Source of the DNA: Verrucomicrobiota bacterium
Lineage (GTDB): Bacteria; Verrucomicrobiota; Verrucomicrobiia; Chthoniobacterales; UBA6821
NCBI GenBank assembly: GCA_008932965.1
Contig: WBXG01000004.1
Coordinates: 1-32,000, forward strand
Length of the DNA: 32,000 bases
Direction: 5' to 3'
The position numbers and the translations under genes are program-made. Shown one piece after another: positions 6,153 to 30,696 of the stretch (the first letter of the stretch is position 1; each line of letters starts with the position of its first letter). Under the pieces are notes generated by a model that saw nothing but the letters and a program-made list of their open reading frames with translations, made no database searches and was not told where the DNA came from.

Positions 6153-9100
6153 TTATTCTACTGATTTCATAAAGTTTTCTCTGTTTTTTTGAATAATTCT
6201 TTCTACCTCTTTCATCACAATTGGACCTTCCAAAGATTCAAGAACTCCTTTTTTACTATTTCTAGCATTCCCCGAACCAATTCTCCAGTAATTTAAGGGA
6301 TTAGTAATATATGCTATATTCCCGTGCTCCAATAACCGTACCCAAAGTAACCAATCGGCGCAGAAGCGCATTTGATCATCAATGAGCTGAGCTAAGCCAT
6401 CAAAATTACGCATAATGACACCACTTGCATTGAGAATTGTATTTTTCTTGCTTAAAAAGTGCCGAATTTCTTCAACTCCATTGTTTATGTAGTCTGATTT
6501 CCAACGATCAGAATGAAATTCACGAAGCCATTCATCCGGGGTTCCTAGAGAAGATCCACTCTTATCAATCATTATCAAATTAGAGGTTGCAAAAGCTAAG
6601 GAGGAATCAGATTCCAAGCGTAAGACTAATTCTTTTATAAAAGAAGAATCTGCTATGTCATCTGATTCAGCAATCCAAATATATTTACCAGAAGCGAGTT
6701 CTATCCCTTTTTGCCATTGCTTAAAAGTCGAACCACTATTTTTCTCGTTAAAAAATGCTTTTGCTCTGGGCTCTCTTACTAAAAGTTGATCAATGATTTC
6801 TTTGCTATTATCTTCTGAAGCATCATCTAAGATAATAATTTCAATGTTTCTGTAATTCTGATTGATAATACTTTGAAAACGCTCCTTTAAATAATTTTCG
6901 TGATTATAATTTGGAACAATAACCGTAACAAGCGGTTCATTATTTGTGTTAATAGAAGGAAGCAAAATAGGAAATCGCTTTTTAAATAGGTTAAAGATTT
7001 CCTTGGCGGCATTGATGCTACTATGAAGAGCATGGACTCGCTTTTTAGCCACATCCCCTAGAGAGACTCTTATTTCTTTATCTTTAGCTAAGAAAAGAAT
7101 AGCTTCTGTTGCTGCGGTCGTATTTTCAAATGGAACAGTGATTCCTGCATCTTCTCTAACGAAAGAAGGAATATTTCCCGTCTCTGAAAAACAAATGATC
7201 GGCAAGCTTGCATCTGCAGCTTCAAGTGCGACAAGAGGACAAGGATCCTCTCTTGAAGAAAGAAAGAAAATATCTCCAATATAATAATAGCGCCTTGACT
7301 GTAGCTGACTACCCAAAAACAAAATATTTTCTTCAAGAGATACTTGTTTTACTATTTGCATATAGGAAGAGGGATCTCCACCTATCCATATAAACTTTAA
7401 TAGCTTATTTTTTTTACATGCTTCAATAGCCGTTTTTAAAAAAAGGTCAGGGCCTTTTCTCCAATCTGTTGTTCCACAGCCAAAAACAACAATGTTATCC
7501 GGCGAAATTCCTAGTTGTTGTTTTAACTCTTTTTTTTCTTCTTCCGTGGGAATTTGTTCTATTGTTAAACACTCGATAAAATCAGGCAAATAGCCTGACT
7601 TCTCTAAAGAAAGCATATGCTCCTTTTGGAGGTTTTCAATGACTTGAGGAGCTCCTCCCAAAATTAAATCACTATTTTTTAAGGTCTCTTTGATAATTTC
7701 CCCAGGAGCCCATCGTTCAATGGCTTTTTGTAACTCATGAGCATGAGTAATAATAGGTACTTTTAAAAAACGCAGTCTTTTTAAAAATAATCCATTAACA
7801 ACAGTGCTTGAGTAAACGCCAATAATATCTTCTGACAGAAAAGATGTTAATACTGCTTCTTGCTCTTTGGCATCCCTATAGTCTTCTAAAACCAATGTAT
7901 CGCCTAGTAACTCAAAATTATTGCGGAGTTCTCCACTTTTAATAAGAATTACTTTGAATTTTGTTATCTTTGTTCGAGTCCATTCTTTTAAAAGATTTAA
8001 AGTTAATATTTGAGCTCCTGCTAAAGCTGCATCATGACTAACAACTAATATATTAGAATCTGTATTCGCAGTCTCAGTAGAGTATGAATACAGGTTCTTA
8101 GAATCTTTCTCATTTTGATTATAATATTGAAGCGCGCGTTTTGTGGCATTCAGAAAAACATATCCATTCTTTTTATCAGGTTCTAAATGACACCCCTCTC
8201 CCCATTCATTCCATGCATTAATAAAAAGTAGTCGTTCGCTTTCTTTAAAATTTTTCCTGGTTTTGGCAATCGCATCGACTAACCATTTATAGTAGTTATT
8301 TGGGGTAGACTTAATCCATGATGTCGCCCTTTCCATGCGTCGAGCTGTATTATCCCATGAAGGACATACGGCTCTTATTAGTCGATAAGATTCTTTTTCT
8401 TGAGAATAAAAAGAAATCATTTCTTCCATATTATAGATATAACCGGAAAAATTTTTCTTTATTCGTGATATAGGTTTTAGAAAAATATTTTCTGCGGGTA
8501 CATTAGCAGGGGGAAACTGAATGGCTGCATCTAGACCATTTTTGAGAGGATCAATAATTTCTAATGATCTCATGCATGCGAGATAGATCTCTCCAATTCC
8601 TTCACTTTTACATACCTTGCGCCAATGCTCAGCAGTAGCCGTCATATTAGGAAGTAAACCTGGTCGATAAATAATCAACAGCGGTTTATTGTTAATCCTG
8701 ATATATCTTGGATCTTTTAAAGCAGGAATAATATCATAAATAAATTTTTCATCGTTTTCATAAGAGTGAACCTGCTCTATTAACACTTCGCTATCTCCAC
8801 CATCCCATGTTCGCGTCCAGTTCTCATTAGCCCAGCAGAAACAAAATGGAAAATCGGGTTTTCCAGTTTCAAGAAGACGATTTAACGGTTTTTCCAACAG
8901 CTTTTTCCCATTAAACCAGTAATAATAATAACAAAATCCATGAATTCCATGTTGACGAGCTAATTCTACTTGCTTTTCTAAAATTGACGGATCATCGAGA
9001 TCATAATAACCAAGATCGGGATGAGGAATGTGAGGTTGATAATGACCTGGATAAAAAGGACGACCTCTTTTTACATTAGTCCACTCAGTAAAGCCTTCAC

Positions 9101-21549: not shown

Positions 21550-21618
21550 CGTTCGAATACTATTTTTTATAAATGGAAATGTTATGATTATTATACTTTA
21601 AAAGAATTCACAAACTTT

Positions 21619-21667
21619 ACTCATCACTCATCACTCATTACTCATTACTCATTACTCATTACTCATC
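21619..21667. repeat. Heptanucleotide microsatellite (ACTCATC/ACTCATT) x7
   Basis: Read directly: actcatc actcatc actcatt actcatt actcatt actcatt actcatc. It lies in the 161-nt batB-batD spacer, 44 nt after the batB stop and 70 nt before the batD start. Confidence 0.95.
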
Positions 21668-26582: not shown

Positions 26583-27572
26583 CTAAGGAACAGGGAGCCC
26601 CTCAAAAATTCTCCCAATAACCTCCTCTGAGGTGATCGAATCTGCCTCTGCTTCGTAGCTTACGGCAACACGATGGCGCAAGACATCAAGACCCACAGAT
26701 TTCACATCATGAGGAGTGACATAACCACGACCATGGAGAAAAGCGTGGGCCTTGGCTGCAAGCGTAAGAAAGATGGTAGCACGCGGGGAGGCTCCATAAC
26801 GAATCAACCCATCGAGTTTTAGCTTGTAGACCGCTGGCTCTCGTGTGGCCCAAACAAGATCCACGATGTAATCTTTCACCTTTTCATCCACATAGATCTC
26901 ATTGACCACATCCCTAGCTCGAAGAATTTGCTCTTTAGAAACGAGGCGCTCCACATGGAGTCGTGGAGAGGAGGTTGCCATGGCATCTAAAATCTGTCGC
27001 TCCTCTTTACGCGTAGGATACCCAACCACAATCTTGAGCATGAAGCGGTCTAATTGAGCCTCTGGCAATGGATAGGTCCCCTCTTGCTCTAAAGGATTTT
27101 GTGTGGCCAAGACAAGGAAGGGATCAGGGAGAGGGAAAGTCTCATCACTAATGGTCACATGCCTCTCTTGCATGGCTTCTAGCAAAGCGCTTTGCACCTT
27201 GGCTGGAGCCCGGTTGATTTCATCGGCCAAGATCAGATTGGCAAATAGAGGGCCTTTGCGTGTCGTAAAAACACTCTCTTTAGGATTGTAGATAAGCGTC
27301 CCAACAAGATCAGCTGGAAGAAGGTCTGGAGTGAATTGCAAACGTTGAAAGGAGGCATCAATACAGGAGGAGAGGGTTTTGACCGTTAATGTCTTAGCAA
27401 GGCCTGGAACACCTTCTAGTAACACATGCCCATTACTCAGCAAGCCGATCAGCAATCCTTGAACGAGCCCTTGCTGACCGATGACAACGCGACTGATTTC
27501 TTTTGTGAGTGGAGGCACCCAAGAGCCTGTTTCTTGGACCCGACGATCAAGTTCTTGAACAGAATGATTCAT
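26583..27572 (-). CDS. moxR: MoxR-family AAA+ ATPase
   Basis: Walker A LLEGVPGLAKT and Walker B LILADEINRAPAKVQSALLEAMQE. 329 aa, which is canonical MoxR length. Confidence 0.92.
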   Translation of the reverse strand: MNHSVQELDRRVQETGSWVPPLTKEISRVVIGQQGLVQGLLIGLLSNGHVLLEGVPGLAKTLTVKTLSSCIDASFQRLQFTPDLLPADLVGTLIYNPKESVFTTRKGPLFANLILADEINRAPAKVQSALLEAMQERHVTISDETFPLPDPFLVLATQNPLEQEGTYPLPEAQLDRFMLKIVVGYPTRKEERQILDAMATSSPRLHVERLVSKEQILRARDVVNEIYVDEKVKDYIVDLVWATREPAVYKLKLDGLIRYGASPRATIFLTLAAKAHAFLHGRGYVTPHDVKSVGLDVLRHRVAVSYEAEADSITSEEVIGRIFEGLPVP

Positions 27573-27676
27573 AGACTGGAATTTTAAATGAAGTTGGAAA
27601 AAAAGGATTTTATTGAATCGACACTAAAAATAAAGAAATGTTCAAAAAAAATTAAAAATTTTTTTCTATTTCCTGC

Positions 27677-27857
27677 TAGCCCGGATATTTCATACTGATC
27701 GTGACGAGGAGGCAGCGAAGGCTGATGGGGCAAGGCGAGCGATGAAGTCTGACGACGGCTGTATGAGTACATACTGCCCGAGGAAGACTTCGAGATCAAC
27801 GCAGCATCCATCTGACTTCCCGGTCTCCGTAGTAGATCAGAATGAAATATTTGGGCT
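27677..27857 (+). repeat. Structured TIR-bounded ~180-nt element, copy 1
   Basis: Starts tagCCCGGATATTTCAT and ends ATGAAATATTTGGGcta. About 100 central nt (27721-27818) are identical to copy 2 (27901-27998). Confidence 0.9.
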
Positions 27858-28038
27858 AACCCGGATATTTCATACTGATCGTGACGAGGAGGCCGCGAAA
27901 GCTGATGGGGCAAGGCGAGCGATGAAGTCTGACGACGGCTGTATGAGTACATACTGCCCGAGGAAGACTTCGAGATCAACGCAGCATCCATCTGACTTTC
28001 CAGCTTATGCAGGTGATCAAGATGAAATACCTGGGTTA
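27857..28038 (+). repeat. Structured TIR-bounded ~180-nt element, copy 2 (head-to-tail with copy 1, 180-nt period)
   Basis: Starts taaCCCGGATATTTCAT and ends ATGAAATACCTGGGttaa. Its right arm contains the last codons and stop of purD. Confidence 0.9.
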
Positions 28039-29303
28039 AAAGAAGCTCCTCCAATGTCCCGTCGATATTGCTTTCCTTCAAAGTTAATCAAATCGGTAGC
28101 GGCATACGCCTTTCTACGAGCCTCTTCGAGTGTTTCTCCCAGCGCAGTCACTCCTAGGACACGTCCTCCAGCAGTGTAAAGAGTACCATCTTCCTCTTTG
28201 GCTCCTGCATGAAAGAGCACCACTTCTGGGTCAGAGGCCAAAGCCGCTTCCATTCCGTTAATCACCTTTCCTTTCTCAATGGTTCCAGGATACCCACCCG
28301 AGGCTACGACAATACAAACGGCAGGGCGTGAATCCCAGAGAGGCTTGTGCGTGGCAAGCGTTCCATCGAGTGTCGCCTCTATAAGATCGAGTAGATCGCT
28401 CTTAAGACGTCGCATGAGGACTTGAGTCTCGGGATCTCCAAAGCGACAGTTAAATTCTAGCACTTTGGGGCCTTGAGGAGTGATCATCACCCCAGGGAAA
28501 AGCATCCCTTGAAAACCAAGACCATCGGTTTCAAGCCCACGTAAAAAAGGTTTTAAGAGGATACGTTGAAGTTCTTCCAGAATGCTTTGGGGACACACTC
28601 CGGAAGGGGAGATGGTTCCCATGCCTCCGGTGTTGAGTCCTTGGTCTCCCTCAAGCGCCCGCTTGTGATCGCGTGCATCAGGAAAAAGAAGGGCCTCTTT
28701 CCCATCTATGAGTGCGTGCAGAGAACATTCTACTCCCGTGAGGAATTCCTCAATGACAATGGTTGCTCCAGCAGCTCCAAAAATTTTCTCCTCCATCGAT
28801 TGCCGCACTGCTTCACATGCCTCTTTTAAATTCTGAGCAATCACGACCCCTTTTCCAAGAGCGAGTCCATCGGCTTTCACAACGATTGGATAAGAGGCAC
28901 TTCGAACATACTCGTAAGCAGAAGCAGCATCGGTGAATGTTTTTGAATCGGCTGTGGGAATTCCATGGCGTTGCATGAAATCCTTAGCAAACGATTTGGA
29001 AGATTCTAAACGTGCTCCGGAGGCCGTAGGGCCAAAAACACGAAGTCCTGCTTCTTTAAAAAGATCAACAATACCGAGTGCCAATGGATCGTCTGGACCG
29101 ACAATGGTGAGATCGATTTTTTTCTCTTTCGCAAAGGCGAGTAACCCTGCGCAATCGGAAGCTGCAATCGGAATATTCACTCCGAGGGCCGCTGTGCCCG
29201 AATTTCCAGGAGCAGTAAAGAGACGTGTGAGCCGAGGACTCTGTTTTAATTTCCAGGCGAGGGCATGTTCTCGGCCGCCGGAGCCGATGAGAAGAATATT
29301 CAT
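28017..29303 (-). CDS. purD: Phosphoribosylamine-glycine ligase
   Basis: MNILLIGSGGREHALAWKL..VVKADGLALGKGV..GGMG..EFNCRFGDPETQ.. is canonical PurD. I prefer the ATG at 29303; the tracked start at 29321 is a TTG. Confidence 0.93.
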   Translation of the reverse strand: MNILLIGSGGREHALAWKLKQSPRLTRLFTAPGNSGTAALGVNIPIAASDCAGLLAFAKEKKIDLTIVGPDDPLALGIVDLFKEAGLRVFGPTASGARLESSKSFAKDFMQRHGIPTADSKTFTDAASAYEYVRSASYPIVVKADGLALGKGVVIAQNLKEACEAVRQSMEEKIFGAAGATIVIEEFLTGVECSLHALIDGKEALLFPDARDHKRALEGDQGLNTGGMGTISPSGVCPQSILEELQRILLKPFLRGLETDGLGFQGMLFPGVMITPQGPKVLEFNCRFGDPETQVLMRRLKSDLLDLIEATLDGTLATHKPLWDSRPAVCIVVASGGYPGTIEKGKVINGMEAALASDPEVVLFHAGAKEEDGTLYTAGGRVLGVTALGETLEEARRKAYAATDLINFEGKQYRRDIGGASFNPGISS

Positions 29304-29360
29304 GTTGGAAAAATTAGCCAAGAGAGATAGCCTCGTCCATCTTCAACTTGTTCCATTTCT

Positions 29361-29705
29361 ATGACCCTCTGCCTGCTTAAATCTAAAATTCACCGAGCCA
29401 CAGTCACTGGTGCTTCGCTTGATTACGAAGGAAGCTTAACTATTGCTGCAGACCTCGCAGAACGTGTAGGACTCCTTCCTTATGAGAAAATCCTAGTTGG
29501 CAATATGGCTAATGGAGAGCGTTTTGAAACCTATGTCATTTATGGAAAAGTAGGGTCTGGAGTTATTGAACTTAATGGAGCTACCGCCTTGCTTGGAAAA
29601 ATTGGAGATCTTCTTACCATCATGTCCTTTGCATGGATAGAGGCTGCTTCTACACATCACCCTAAGATTATCACTCTTGGACGTAGTAATATTATTCAGT
29701 CGTAA
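29361..29705 (+). CDS. panD: Aspartate 1-decarboxylase
   Basis: LKSKIHRATVTGASLDYEGSLTIA..NGERFETYVI..LNGA collinear with E. coli PanD, including the G-S self-cleavage site. Confidence 0.92.
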   Translation: MTLCLLKSKIHRATVTGASLDYEGSLTIAADLAERVGLLPYEKILVGNMANGERFETYVIYGKVGSGVIELNGATALLGKIGDLLTIMSFAWIEAASTHHPKIITLGRSNIIQS

Positions 29706-29885
29706 CCCGGATATTTCATTCTAATCGTGACGAGGAGACCGCGAAGGCTGATGGGGTAAGGCAGAAGAGCATTTTGATGCCGGGCTGTATGTGTACATAC
29801 TGTCCAAATCAAAATGTGAGTCTAACGCAGCATCCACCCTTGCTTCCCGGCCTCCGCAGTAGATTAGTGTGAAATATCCGGGTTA
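29703..29885 (+). repeat. Structured TIR-bounded ~180-nt element, copy 3
   Basis: TAACCCGGATATTTCAtt...gtGAAATATCCGGGTTAA, with a perfect 15-16 bp TIR. The first three nt are the panD stop codon. Confidence 0.9.
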
Positions 29886-29910
29886 ACCCGCATATTTCAT
29901 TCTAATCGTG
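29883..29910 (+). repeat. Left-end stub of the same element (copy 4, ~28 nt)
   Basis: taacccgcatatttcattctaatcgtg matches the copy 3 left end with 1 mismatch, then diverges into tadA coding sequence. It shares the TTAA with the right end of copy 3. Confidence 0.75.
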
Positions 29911-30418
29911 CAGTGGTTGCTGCATTTAGATCCAAGCTATTTCGTTTTTCATTGAAGAATTTTTTGAGGAGGCGAGCGCACTCCTCCTCTCGTACTCCAC
30001 TTTTAATATCGCATTTATGATTGAGGGTTGGCATTTGAAGAATATTAAGAAGCCCTCCAGCTGCACCTCCACGAGAATCACCACAGCCAAAAATCACCCG
30101 CCTCACACGTGCATTTACGGAGGCTCCTGCACACATGGGGCATGGCTCTTTAGTGACATAGAGATCACACTCATTTAATCGCCAGTCCCCAATGACCGAT
30201 GCAGCTTGAGTAATTGCTAAGATTTCTGCATGTGCTGTGGCATCTTTCAACGCCTCTACTTGATTGTGAGCACGGGCAATGATGCGATCGCAATAGACTA
30301 TGACAGCTCCTACGGGGACCTCCTCCTTTTCATATGCATGTAGGGCCTGGCGCAATGCTTGCTGCATAAAATAATCGTCACTCTTAAGGTCAATCGTCTC
30401 TGTTTGATAAAAATCCAT
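29897..30418 (-). CDS. tadA: tRNA-specific adenosine deaminase
   Basis: ..VPVGAVIV..HAEILAI..EPCPMCAGA.. is the CDA-fold zinc motif (HAE / PCxxC). 173 aa. Confidence 0.9.
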   Translation of the reverse strand: MDFYQTETIDLKSDDYFMQQALRQALHAYEKEEVPVGAVIVYCDRIIARAHNQVEALKDATAHAEILAITQAASVIGDWRLNECDLYVTKEPCPMCAGASVNARVRRVIFGCGDSRGGAAGGLLNILQMPTLNHKCDIKSGVREEECARLLKKFFNEKRNSLDLNAATTARLE

Positions 30419-30442
30419 AAATTTAGTTTTAAAAGAAAAGTC

Positions 30443-30696
30443 TTAACCCGCATATTTCATACTGGTTCCTTGCAAGGCGCTGCGAATCCTGATGCAGAAA
30501 CCACCGGCGGTCGGGAGACCACGGTGGAGACTGCCCTGAAAGGGCGAGACGAGCGGGAGCGAGCGAGTCAACGAAGGTGATGGATTGCAACGACGGCTGT
30601 ATGTTTCATACTGCCCGAGGAGCAATTCGAAGCTGACGCAGCATCCATCTCACTTCCCGGCTTCCGTAGTAAATGAGTATGAAATATCCAGGTTAA
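30443..30696 (+). repeat. Long (254-nt) variant of the structured element, copy 5
   Basis: TTAACCCGCATATTTCAT...ATGAAATATCCAGGTTAA. It shares the core gacggctgtatg..catactgcccgagga and cgcagcatccatc, and carries extra GC-rich material in the left arm (about 30465-30570). Confidence 0.85.

Follow-up and report, generated by a model that had tools for sequence, protein, structure and literature searches.

Hairpin-forming miniature elements of uncultured freshwater Chthoniobacterales very probably use the ends of IS1380-family insertion sequences

Repeat copies at the purD–panD–tadA locus

The stretch of DNA analysed here (the window) comprises positions 1 to 32,000, that is 32,000 nt, of contig WBXG01000004.1 from a Verrucomicrobiota draft genome (GCA_008932965.1; Chthoniobacterales, UBA6821). 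It contains four full copies and one 24-nt left-end stub of a short repeat, all on the plus strand and all confined to positions 27676–30696. These copies are very probably MITEs (miniature inverted-repeat transposable elements), that is, non-autonomous DNA transposons, which use the ends of an IS1380-family insertion sequence (IS). The genes around them, named from the Pfam labels of the same locus in other assemblies, are a MoxR-type AAA ATPase gene (26583–27572, minus strand), purD (28017–29321, minus strand), panD (29361–29705, plus strand), the TadA-like deaminase gene tadA (29897–30418, minus strand) and an amino-acid permease gene that starts at about 30776 (plus strand). The limits of purD and tadA were also taken from the list of open reading frames (ORFs). 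The labels agree with the gene names given in the original prediction, a short note made from the sequence of the window alone.

The element body starts with CCCGGATATTTCAT, ends with ATGAAATATCCGGG and has a 4-bp YTAR direct repeat on both flanks. Its standard length is 176 bp, with 177 bp in the third copy (c3) and 246 bp in a long variant (c4). Copy c1 (27680–27855, plus strand, 176 nt, CCCGGATATTTCAT...ATGAAATATTTGGG; nhmmer E = 2.5e-62) lies between the 3' end of purD and the start of moxR, antisense to both, and is preceded by CTAG (27676–27679), which the sequence and the YTAR statistics given below identify as a target-site copy. The CTAA at 27856–27859 is common to c1 and c2 and forms their head-to-tail junction, which was also recovered with the tandem repeat finder TRF (period 180, 1.8 copies, 97% matches). 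Copy c2 (27860–28035, plus strand, 176 nt; E = 4.7e-61) is followed by TTAA (28036–28039). The left 4-mer of c3 is GTAA (29702–29705), whose TAA (29703–29705) is the stop codon of panD, and the c3 body (29706–29882, plus strand, 177 nt; E = 9.5e-57) is joined through a common TTAA (29883–29886) to the stub CCCGCATATTTCATTCTAATCGTG (29887–29910, plus strand, 24 nt; nhmmer match 29884–29922, E = 2.5e-5). Tandem neighbours are thus separated by one YTAR common to both. The long variant c4 (30447–30692, plus strand, 246 nt; E = 4.4e-50, and alignment) occupies the divergent spacer between tadA and the permease gene. It carries an additional GC-rich internal module of ~73 nt, placed in the left arm, and is bounded by TTAA at 30443–30446 and at 30693–30696, a perfect TTAA/TTAA duplication.

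An nhmmer profile built from the alignment of the four full copies matched 27676–27859, 27856–28039, 29702–29886 and 30444–30696 with E values of 1e-50 to 1e-62, and retrieved no further copy in the other 27 kb of the window (next match E = 0.66). The 14-nt terminus, with up to three mismatches allowed, occurred 10 times in the window against 3.3 expected, nine of the 10 lying within the repeat region; none of 100 shuffles reached this number. The original prediction had placed five copies here, and all of them are present within 1–3 nt according to the sequence, the repeat finder, TRF and the profile. One of the five, the left-end stub noted as 28 nt at 29883–29910, is resolved here as the 24 nt at 29887–29910. 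The termini, the TAA/TTAA common to adjacent copies, the CTAG, CTAA and TTAA flanks and the positions at gene ends are as it described them.

With 176–246 bp, the element is well under 600 bp and contains no transposase gene; its ORFs are read-throughs of only 40–165 codons, without a match to any family. CCCGGATATTTCAT and ATGAAATATCCGGG form terminal inverted repeats, and the terminal helix of 23 pairs is 94% paired across 100 copies. The description of the copies as MITE-like, bounded by inverted repeats and devoid of transposase therefore holds, and it can be extended, since the whole element is a long hairpin with a stop-free frame.

A dispersed, high-copy family

The family was searched for with a core pattern (the loop plus ACGCAGCATCC) in one genome per species. 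At least 88 stretches matched and, among the matches listed, all were in six metagenome-assembled genomes (MAGs) of Chthoniobacterales/Spartobacteria: Tobar2m-G38, Kiruna_bin-02438, SRP286056_co2_229, Deming_bin.170, SMAG_U8253 and DASTOOL.2.5kb_122. In the 565 kb fetched around these matches, the profile gave at least 238 non-overlapping hits, 131 of which were full-length copies with flanks. This density should be read as an upper estimate, the loci having been selected by a match. Both orientations occur in the related genomes, and many copies are found at contig ends. Clusters like that of the window are common (e.g. L040, L055 and L072), so the local density, which had been singled out as unusual, is normal for the lineage. 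Absence of further copies or empty sites, named in the original prediction as an argument against mobility, is not what was found: copies number in the hundreds and are spread over at least six species.

Several subfamilies can be distinguished, namely a standard form of 183 nt (left TAR through right YTAR), one of 186–190 nt, and long variants of 253–296 nt with an additional GC-rich module. In the Kiruna MAG, some copies appear to be split into a left half (profile positions 3–104) and a right half (100–185) with ~90 nt between them (L023 3172–3440, L051 211–487 and 2373–2829, and L056 572–854); they resemble a further variant that carries an insertion at the apical loop.

No match to the element was found in viral contigs, plasmids or phages. 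Rfam returned no match at gathering thresholds, the best sub-threshold hit reaching 21 bits against a threshold of 38 and belonging to an implausible family. A literature search on MITEs of Verrucomicrobia and Chthoniobacterales and on the terminal sequence gave no description either. We conclude that this is a MITE family abundant in a clade of uncultured freshwater Chthoniobacterales, of an ordinary kind and apparently undescribed, as far as our search could find.

Target-site duplication

In 127 of the 131 copies, a pyrimidine precedes the left TAR. In solo copies (n = 78), the left and right 4-mers recur as direct repeats: TTAA/TTAA in 35, CTAG/CTAG in eight, TTAG/TTAG in eight and CTAA/CTAA in two. 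The pairing TTAG/CTAA, which would be expected if the 4-mer belonged to the inverted repeat, was found in none of the 78. Left and right R agree in 12 out of 12 copies of the Kiruna MAG, and tandem copies at other loci always have a single common 4-mer.

Strains of the window's own population provide a clean pair of empty and filled sites. The empty site (L090) reads CAACA-CTAG-TATTAATT, the last segment beginning with TATT, and the filled site (L089) reads CAACA-CTAG, a 640-nt cluster of copies ending in ATGAAATATCCGGG, CTAG and then TAATAATT, which begins with TAAT; the CTAG is duplicated. The same L089 cluster contains a standard copy that interrupts the loop of a long variant's additional hairpin, as GGCT-TTAA-copy-TTAA-GGGGGCAGCC. 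The uninterrupted form of this site is GGCTTTAAGGGGGCAGCC in L040; likewise, the uninterrupted GGCTTTAAGGGGG stands against GGCT TTAA, the copy and TTAA GGGGG.

The duplication is therefore 4 bp long with the consensus YTAR, mostly TTAA and also CTAG, TTAG and CTAA. The original prediction had left a choice between TA and YTAR/TTAA. The second stands on the statistics of the 131 copies, the empty/filled pair and the nested insertions; a TA-only duplication, as in MITEs derived from IS630/Tc1-mariner elements, is excluded because the first and last bases of the 4-mer vary together in the manner of direct repeats, and the empty sites also show 4 bp.

Further copies have inserted on at least four occasions (L073 1687, L022 6768, L047 7248 and L089 14513) into the TTAG or TTAA that lies in the loop of the additional hairpin of long variants (CTGCC-TTTAG-GCAG or GGCT-TTAA-GGGG). 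These insertions, together with the re-use of YTAR at existing ends, suggest that a YTAR in a stem, or adjoining one, is preferred.

Autonomous relatives with the same ends

Elements with the same ends that encode a transposase were detected in metagenome contigs. The scan required TTAA and the terminus, with the next two bases set so as to leave out the MITE subfamilies already recognised, and gave at least 119 stretches with a GC content of 34–64%. In L146 (5166–6783), inverted termini 1.6 kb apart enclose an ORF of 450 aa. The ends of this element are TTAA|CCCGGATATTTCATC...GATGAAATATCCGGG|TTAA or, in longer form, TTAA|CCCGGATATTTCATCCGCC...GCAGATGAAATATCCGGG|TTAA. Its ORF scored 437 bits against NF033539 (IS1380 family transposase, an NCBIfam equivalog with a cut-off of 180) and 547 bits against Pfam PF13701 (DDE_Tnp_1_4). 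Three more full elements (L105, L188 and L150) and a fragment (L203) were retrieved by tblastn with the L146 protein. All four full elements are ~1.6 kb long and have the same 15-nt ends as the MITE, with YTAR flanks. Their ends are identical even though the further transposases share only 44–80% identity with the L146 protein. For the L188 transposase, more than 7,900 homologues were retrieved, most of them on contigs of IS length (1.5–2 kb), and these gave no link to the host lineage.

These results change the partner that had been proposed, an IS630- or IS5-type element, since the elements that share the termini belong to the IS1380 family. IS630, considered first for the sake of a TA target, was dropped once IS1380 elements with identical ends had been found. 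A MITE derived from the IS5 family would fit the YTAR target, but elements with these termini encode IS1380-family transposases.

The same metagenome contigs (L098–L216) hold related MITEs with identical CCCGGATATTTCAT ends, for instance at L168 1177–1352, L191 1501–1856 and L099 1254–1429. Their commonest body length is 176 bp (15 of 46), and some have similar inner-arm motifs, CGTAGCGAGG...CCGCAGTAGA. Since they occur in many other metagenomes, at 34–64% GC, these ends and this size are common well beyond the lineage of the window.

Variation among near-identical strains

An exact look-up of the PanD protein retrieved the same locus in nine other assemblies (L089–L097), 95–99.9% identical to the window. 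Strains that are ~99% identical differ in the presence or absence of copies, while the surrounding genes are unchanged. After panD, the window and L094–L097 have c3 plus the stub, L090 and L091 have the stub only, and in L089, L092 and L093 a long variant of 272 nt accompanies the stub, which is kept in all strains examined. At the moxR/purD site, the dimer is present in the window and L094; L090, L091 and L095–L097 have a single copy that is c1-like on the left and c2-like on the right, with a different centre, and in L089 a full copy is found together with a right-end remnant of 72 nt. The tadA/permease site holds the long variant in the window and a short copy in L089 with the same right-hand ~60 nt. 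Taken together, these patterns show frequent recombination and gene conversion between copies.

The site after panD also allows the order of some events to be read. The last sense codon of panD is TCT in L089, which gives TTAA, and the synonymous TCG in the window, which gives GTAA; the unusual left 4-mer of c3 is thus explained by a change from TCT to TCG. L090 has the TCG change and yet lacks c3, so its c3-less allele is most simply a secondary loss. Excision may account for this loss, or else a deletion across the 27-nt direct repeat that the left end of c3 makes with the stub.

In L093 (~8330) and L095 (~8495), at the point that corresponds to ~27676 of the window, a wholly different set of genes stands upstream of purD in place of the moxR/bat operon. 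Synteny is lost at the left end of an element copy, and copies of the family therefore mark rearrangement breakpoints.

Two further features of the window were observed. A heptanucleotide tandem repeat (TTACTCA / ACTCATC) lies at 21617–21666, in the spacer between BatD-like and VWA/TPR genes. It has seven copies in the window, two arrays of ~10.5 copies in L090 (2244–2317 and 2418–2489) and ~6 copies in L089 (2365–2408), and could be a variable-number or phase-variable site. A 1744-codon ORF (6153–11387, minus strand) lies within an otherwise ordinary gene neighbourhood.

Gene ends and reading frames

Several genes of the locus end within the element or at its flank. Besides panD, whose stop codon belongs to the left 4-mer of c3, purD takes its last six codons (NPGISS) and its TGA stop from the right terminus of c2, which gives the C-terminus ...GGASF-NPGISS*. 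tadA reads into the stub, from which it takes its three final codons (RLE) and its stop (...TTA-RLE*). Overall, about a quarter of the genes ending beside a copy have the duplicated target as their stop, and a second class stops 22 nt into the element. Among the copies with flanks, the stop falls exactly at the element flank in ~10 of 41 genes that read into the left end and in ~10 of 55 that read into the right end, and six further cases beyond purD and tadA have a stop inside the element at -21/-22.

These positions follow from the target itself. YTAR contains TAA or TAG, and each insertion would recreate YTAR on both sides. In the first phase, an in-frame TAR can only be a stop codon, which the duplication would restore, as at panD. 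In the second phase, the gene would read seven codons into the terminus and end at a conserved TGA, as purD does; in the variant of this phase seen at the stub, tadA ends at its own TGA after about three element-encoded codons. In the third phase, YTA is a leucine codon, and the 180-nt, usually stop-free insertion would add 60 codons in frame. Copies are thus expected exactly at gene ends because the target holds TAA or TAG and the duplication regenerates the stop, and they can survive inside genes because of the in-frame addition of 60 codons.

The reading frame of the element is consistent with this. Its length is divisible by 3 in 94 of the 131 copies, and a stop-free frame is present in 63% (plus strand) and 83% (minus strand) of the 183-nt copies, compared with 3–9% of shuffles. 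In-frame copies inside ORFs, stop-free and with at least 60 codons on either side, account for 14 of the 131. One of them is common to an orthologous protein of ~1000 aa in two species (L040 2866–6039 and L045 2859–5912, both minus strand), which is conserved on both sides of the copy and has no Pfam match. A second in-frame copy in this protein, at L045 5480–5662, is absent from L040; here the DNA is too diverged for the target duplication to be read. A search with the 60-residue read-through peptide found, among 21 candidates, only hypothetical ORFs of 57–104 aa and no large proteins. Among the related 176-bp MITEs of other metagenomes, one or both of two readings are open in 12 of 15 copies, against 20–25% of shuffles per strand, which is suggestive only; one related subfamily keeps the frame open in one orientation only. 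The open frame may be under selection, or it may simply have come down from a master copy.

Hairpin structure and strand orientation

Predicted RNA folding of c1 gives an end-to-end hairpin of -84.6 kcal/mol (z = -7.4). The values for c3 are similar (-81.2 kcal/mol, z = -7.9), and the long variant c4 folds at -95.3 kcal/mol, which is weaker by z (-3.7). When the c1 structure was imposed on 100 copies, 87% of cells were paired, compared with 32–44% when the partners were slid. Doubly changed, compensatory cells numbered 271 against 106 in shuffles, and none of 500 shuffles reached the observed value, a control that can be inflated by kinship of the copies and by the derivation of the structure from a member. 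Inner-stem modules are swapped whole, and in a compensatory manner, between subfamilies. RNAalifold, run on a MAFFT alignment of the 100 copies, yielded only 10 pairs, since that alignment mixes subfamilies and chimeras. We take the pairing and compensatory changes under the imposed structure as good but not formal evidence that the whole element is a conserved hairpin.

The hairpin is not symmetrical. In 95 of 100 copies the plus strand has the more stable fold (mean -87.8 vs -72.6 kcal/mol), owing to the many G.U positions, and two parts are near-invariant, the loop GGCTGTATG...CATACTG and the one-sided motif ACGCAGCATCCA. With these properties, the element might be mainly a functional structured RNA or cis-acting hairpin, such as a stabiliser of mRNA 3' ends, an attenuator or a small RNA, kept by the host and using mobility only as a means of spread. 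The compensatory changes, the better fold of the plus strand by ~15 kcal/mol, the conservation of loop and motif, and the location of copies at gene ends all speak for such a role. We nonetheless consider it quite improbable. Orientation shows no link to the majority gene strand (35 vs 40), and between co-directional genes 22 copies are antisense and eight sense, so that read-through transcripts would usually carry the weaker strand. Neither a terminator-like tail nor promoter and terminator signals above chance were detected in the element, and no Rfam family matches it. Copies come and go among ~99% identical strains with no change in the surrounding genes, and they also lie inside coding sequences. 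The conserved loop, in turn, may only mean that the copies are young and derive from few master copies.

Orientation is instead related to base composition. With the local GC skew taken outside the copies, the plus strand of the element lies on the C-rich strand in 121 of 178 arrays (p = 2e-6). The same test with ±3-kb flanks and all hits masked gave 117 vs 59 arrays (Wilcoxon 1e-7), and the bias is also found at the level of loci (57 of 88; 4e-5). By MAG, the counts are 86/129 in Tobar, 6/6 in Deming, 7/8 in SRP286056, 3/3 in the window and 12/26 in Kiruna. The window itself has only a weak GC skew (-0.01 over its whole length, -0.055 over the last 4 kb), and its three independent sites in one orientation are not significant alone. 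The identical polarity of all copies whatever the direction of the genes, which had seemed unusual, is accordingly a feature of this locus; both orientations occur elsewhere, with a bias of ~2:1 that tracks local GC skew. In most bacteria, the G-rich strand is the leading strand. If this is so here, the lagging-strand template would tend to carry the weaker hairpin, and the bias may reflect either the loss of copies with the strong hairpin on that template or an insertion preference linked to replication.

Single-strand transposons such as IS608 and ISDra2 are also oriented with a bias relative to GC skew. This bias, and a full-length hairpin with strand asymmetry, would be accounted for by a REPIN-like or IS200/IS605-type element that an HUH enzyme (RAYT or TnpA) moves in single-stranded form during replication. 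Such an element is nevertheless highly unlikely, as the flanks are 4-bp direct target duplications, which HUH elements do not make, the 14–15-nt terminal inverted repeats are identical to those of DDE IS1380 elements, and there is no REP-type GTAG/CGTC head. Integron attC sites were rejected as well, given that the flanking genes are housekeeping genes in mixed orientations and that copies occur in both orientations and inside genes. Purely local duplication of one intergenic palindrome, or an assembly artefact, would suit the 97% identity of c1 and c2 in tandem and five copies in 3 kb with none in the other 27 kb, but can practically be dismissed in view of hundreds of dispersed copies in six species, in independent assemblies from several laboratories, and of this locus, which nine separate assemblies reproduced with copies at the same sites.

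Origin and spread of the element

The reading that we favour is that of a MITE with IS1380-type ends. A DDE transposase of the IS1380 family, encoded at another place in the genome, would act in trans to move the element. Re-use of the YTAR beside an existing end would produce head-to-tail arrays with a single YTAR, such as c1/c2 and c3/stub, and recombination and gene conversion between copies would then give rise to chimeras, stubs, deletions and breaks in synteny.

Some observations weigh against this reading. No transposase homologue was found by tblastn in the window or in 97 Chthoniobacterales loci (~700 kb of draft-MAG fragments), and a search of the Chthoniobacterales loci for terminus pairs gave housekeeping genes only and no transposase. 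MAGs usually lose IS copies during assembly. The MITE has just the terminal 14–15 nt in common with the IS elements found, their interiors being unrelated, and it is therefore not a simple deletion derivative of any of them. The flanking 4-mers are not identical in about a quarter of the MITE copies and in three of the four autonomous elements, and in the window those of c1 (CTAG/CTAA) and c3 (GTAA/TTAA) differ. Recombination, point mutation or assembly chimeras fit these unequal flanks, which is not proof of any of them. The c3-less allele is most simply a secondary loss, and all the polymorphisms among strains could be due to recombination or gene conversion, so that they do not prove fresh transposition. 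Finally, the account given above of the strand-asymmetric hairpin and the GC-skew bias is one that we only infer.

A broader proposal is that ~176-bp hairpins with CCCGGATATTTCAT ends are a widespread bacterial counterpart of piggyBac MITEs whose size and structure are under selection. The features behind it are the recurrence of 180 bp (176 + 4), the stop-free frame, the strand-specific, G.U-rich hairpin and the replication-strand orientation bias. We regard this proposal as unlikely. If it were true, an IS1380-type transposase would act on a single-stranded hairpin form, or the host would select it, and the copies would supply new 60-residue protein segments and gene ends.

Comparison with known elements

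The closest likeness is with the IS1380 family itself (NF033539; PF13701), whose members found here have identical 14–15-nt termini, CCCGGATATTTCAT(C), and YTAR flanks. The MITE differs in its 176-bp length, in the lack of a transposase, in an unrelated interior and in being a hairpin throughout. According to ISfinder, IS1380 elements make a 4-bp duplication and have ends that begin with CC, which agrees with the MITE. The enterobacterial hairpin MITEs ERIC/IRU are imperfect palindromes of ~130–180 bp that fold end to end; they occupy transcribed intergenic regions at gene ends and have longer variants with internal insertions. Size, end-to-end fold and location at gene ends are thus alike, whereas sequence, host, duplication and IS partner differ.

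In piggyBac elements, the target is TTAA (with TTAG and CTAA variants), the duplication is 4 bp long and the terminal inverted repeats begin with CCC; IS1380 transposases serve as the prokaryotic outgroup for rooting piggyBac trees (PMC10813416). The eukaryotic piggyBac elements and their MITEs resemble the present MITE in target, 4-bp duplication and CCC termini, while the present host is bacterial and CTAG and TTAG targets are common in it. IS5 also duplicates a 4-bp 5'-YTAR-3' (PMC5009759), the same consensus as that of the MITE, but the transposases behind MITE-type ends are of the IS1380 family and not of the IS5 family. Rickettsia palindromic elements (RPEs) are short palindromic repeats that lie in frame in protein genes and add a peptide (PMC10969869). 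Insertion in frame is likewise seen in the 14 in-gene copies described here, at exactly 60 codons, a likeness in the way of working and not one of homology. Unlike RPEs, which belong to an unrelated phylum and show no sequence relation to it, the present element has clear ends, a target duplication and a related IS family, and its copies are mostly intergenic or at stop codons.

The finding leaves the general view of mobile elements unchanged. It does describe a bacterial MITE family tied to IS1380-type ends and to a piggyBac-like TTAA/YTAR target, a link for which we found no precedent in the literature searched. For the genomics of the clade, the element explains the small contigs of draft freshwater Chthoniobacterales genomes, many of which end in a copy. 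Its copies mark sites of rearrangement, as upstream of purD, where synteny breaks at a copy in two strains, and they are usable as strain markers, given their differences between ~99% identical strains. The element also offers a simple mechanical reason for the presence of MITEs on stop codons: the target holds TAA or TAG, and its duplication restores the stop.

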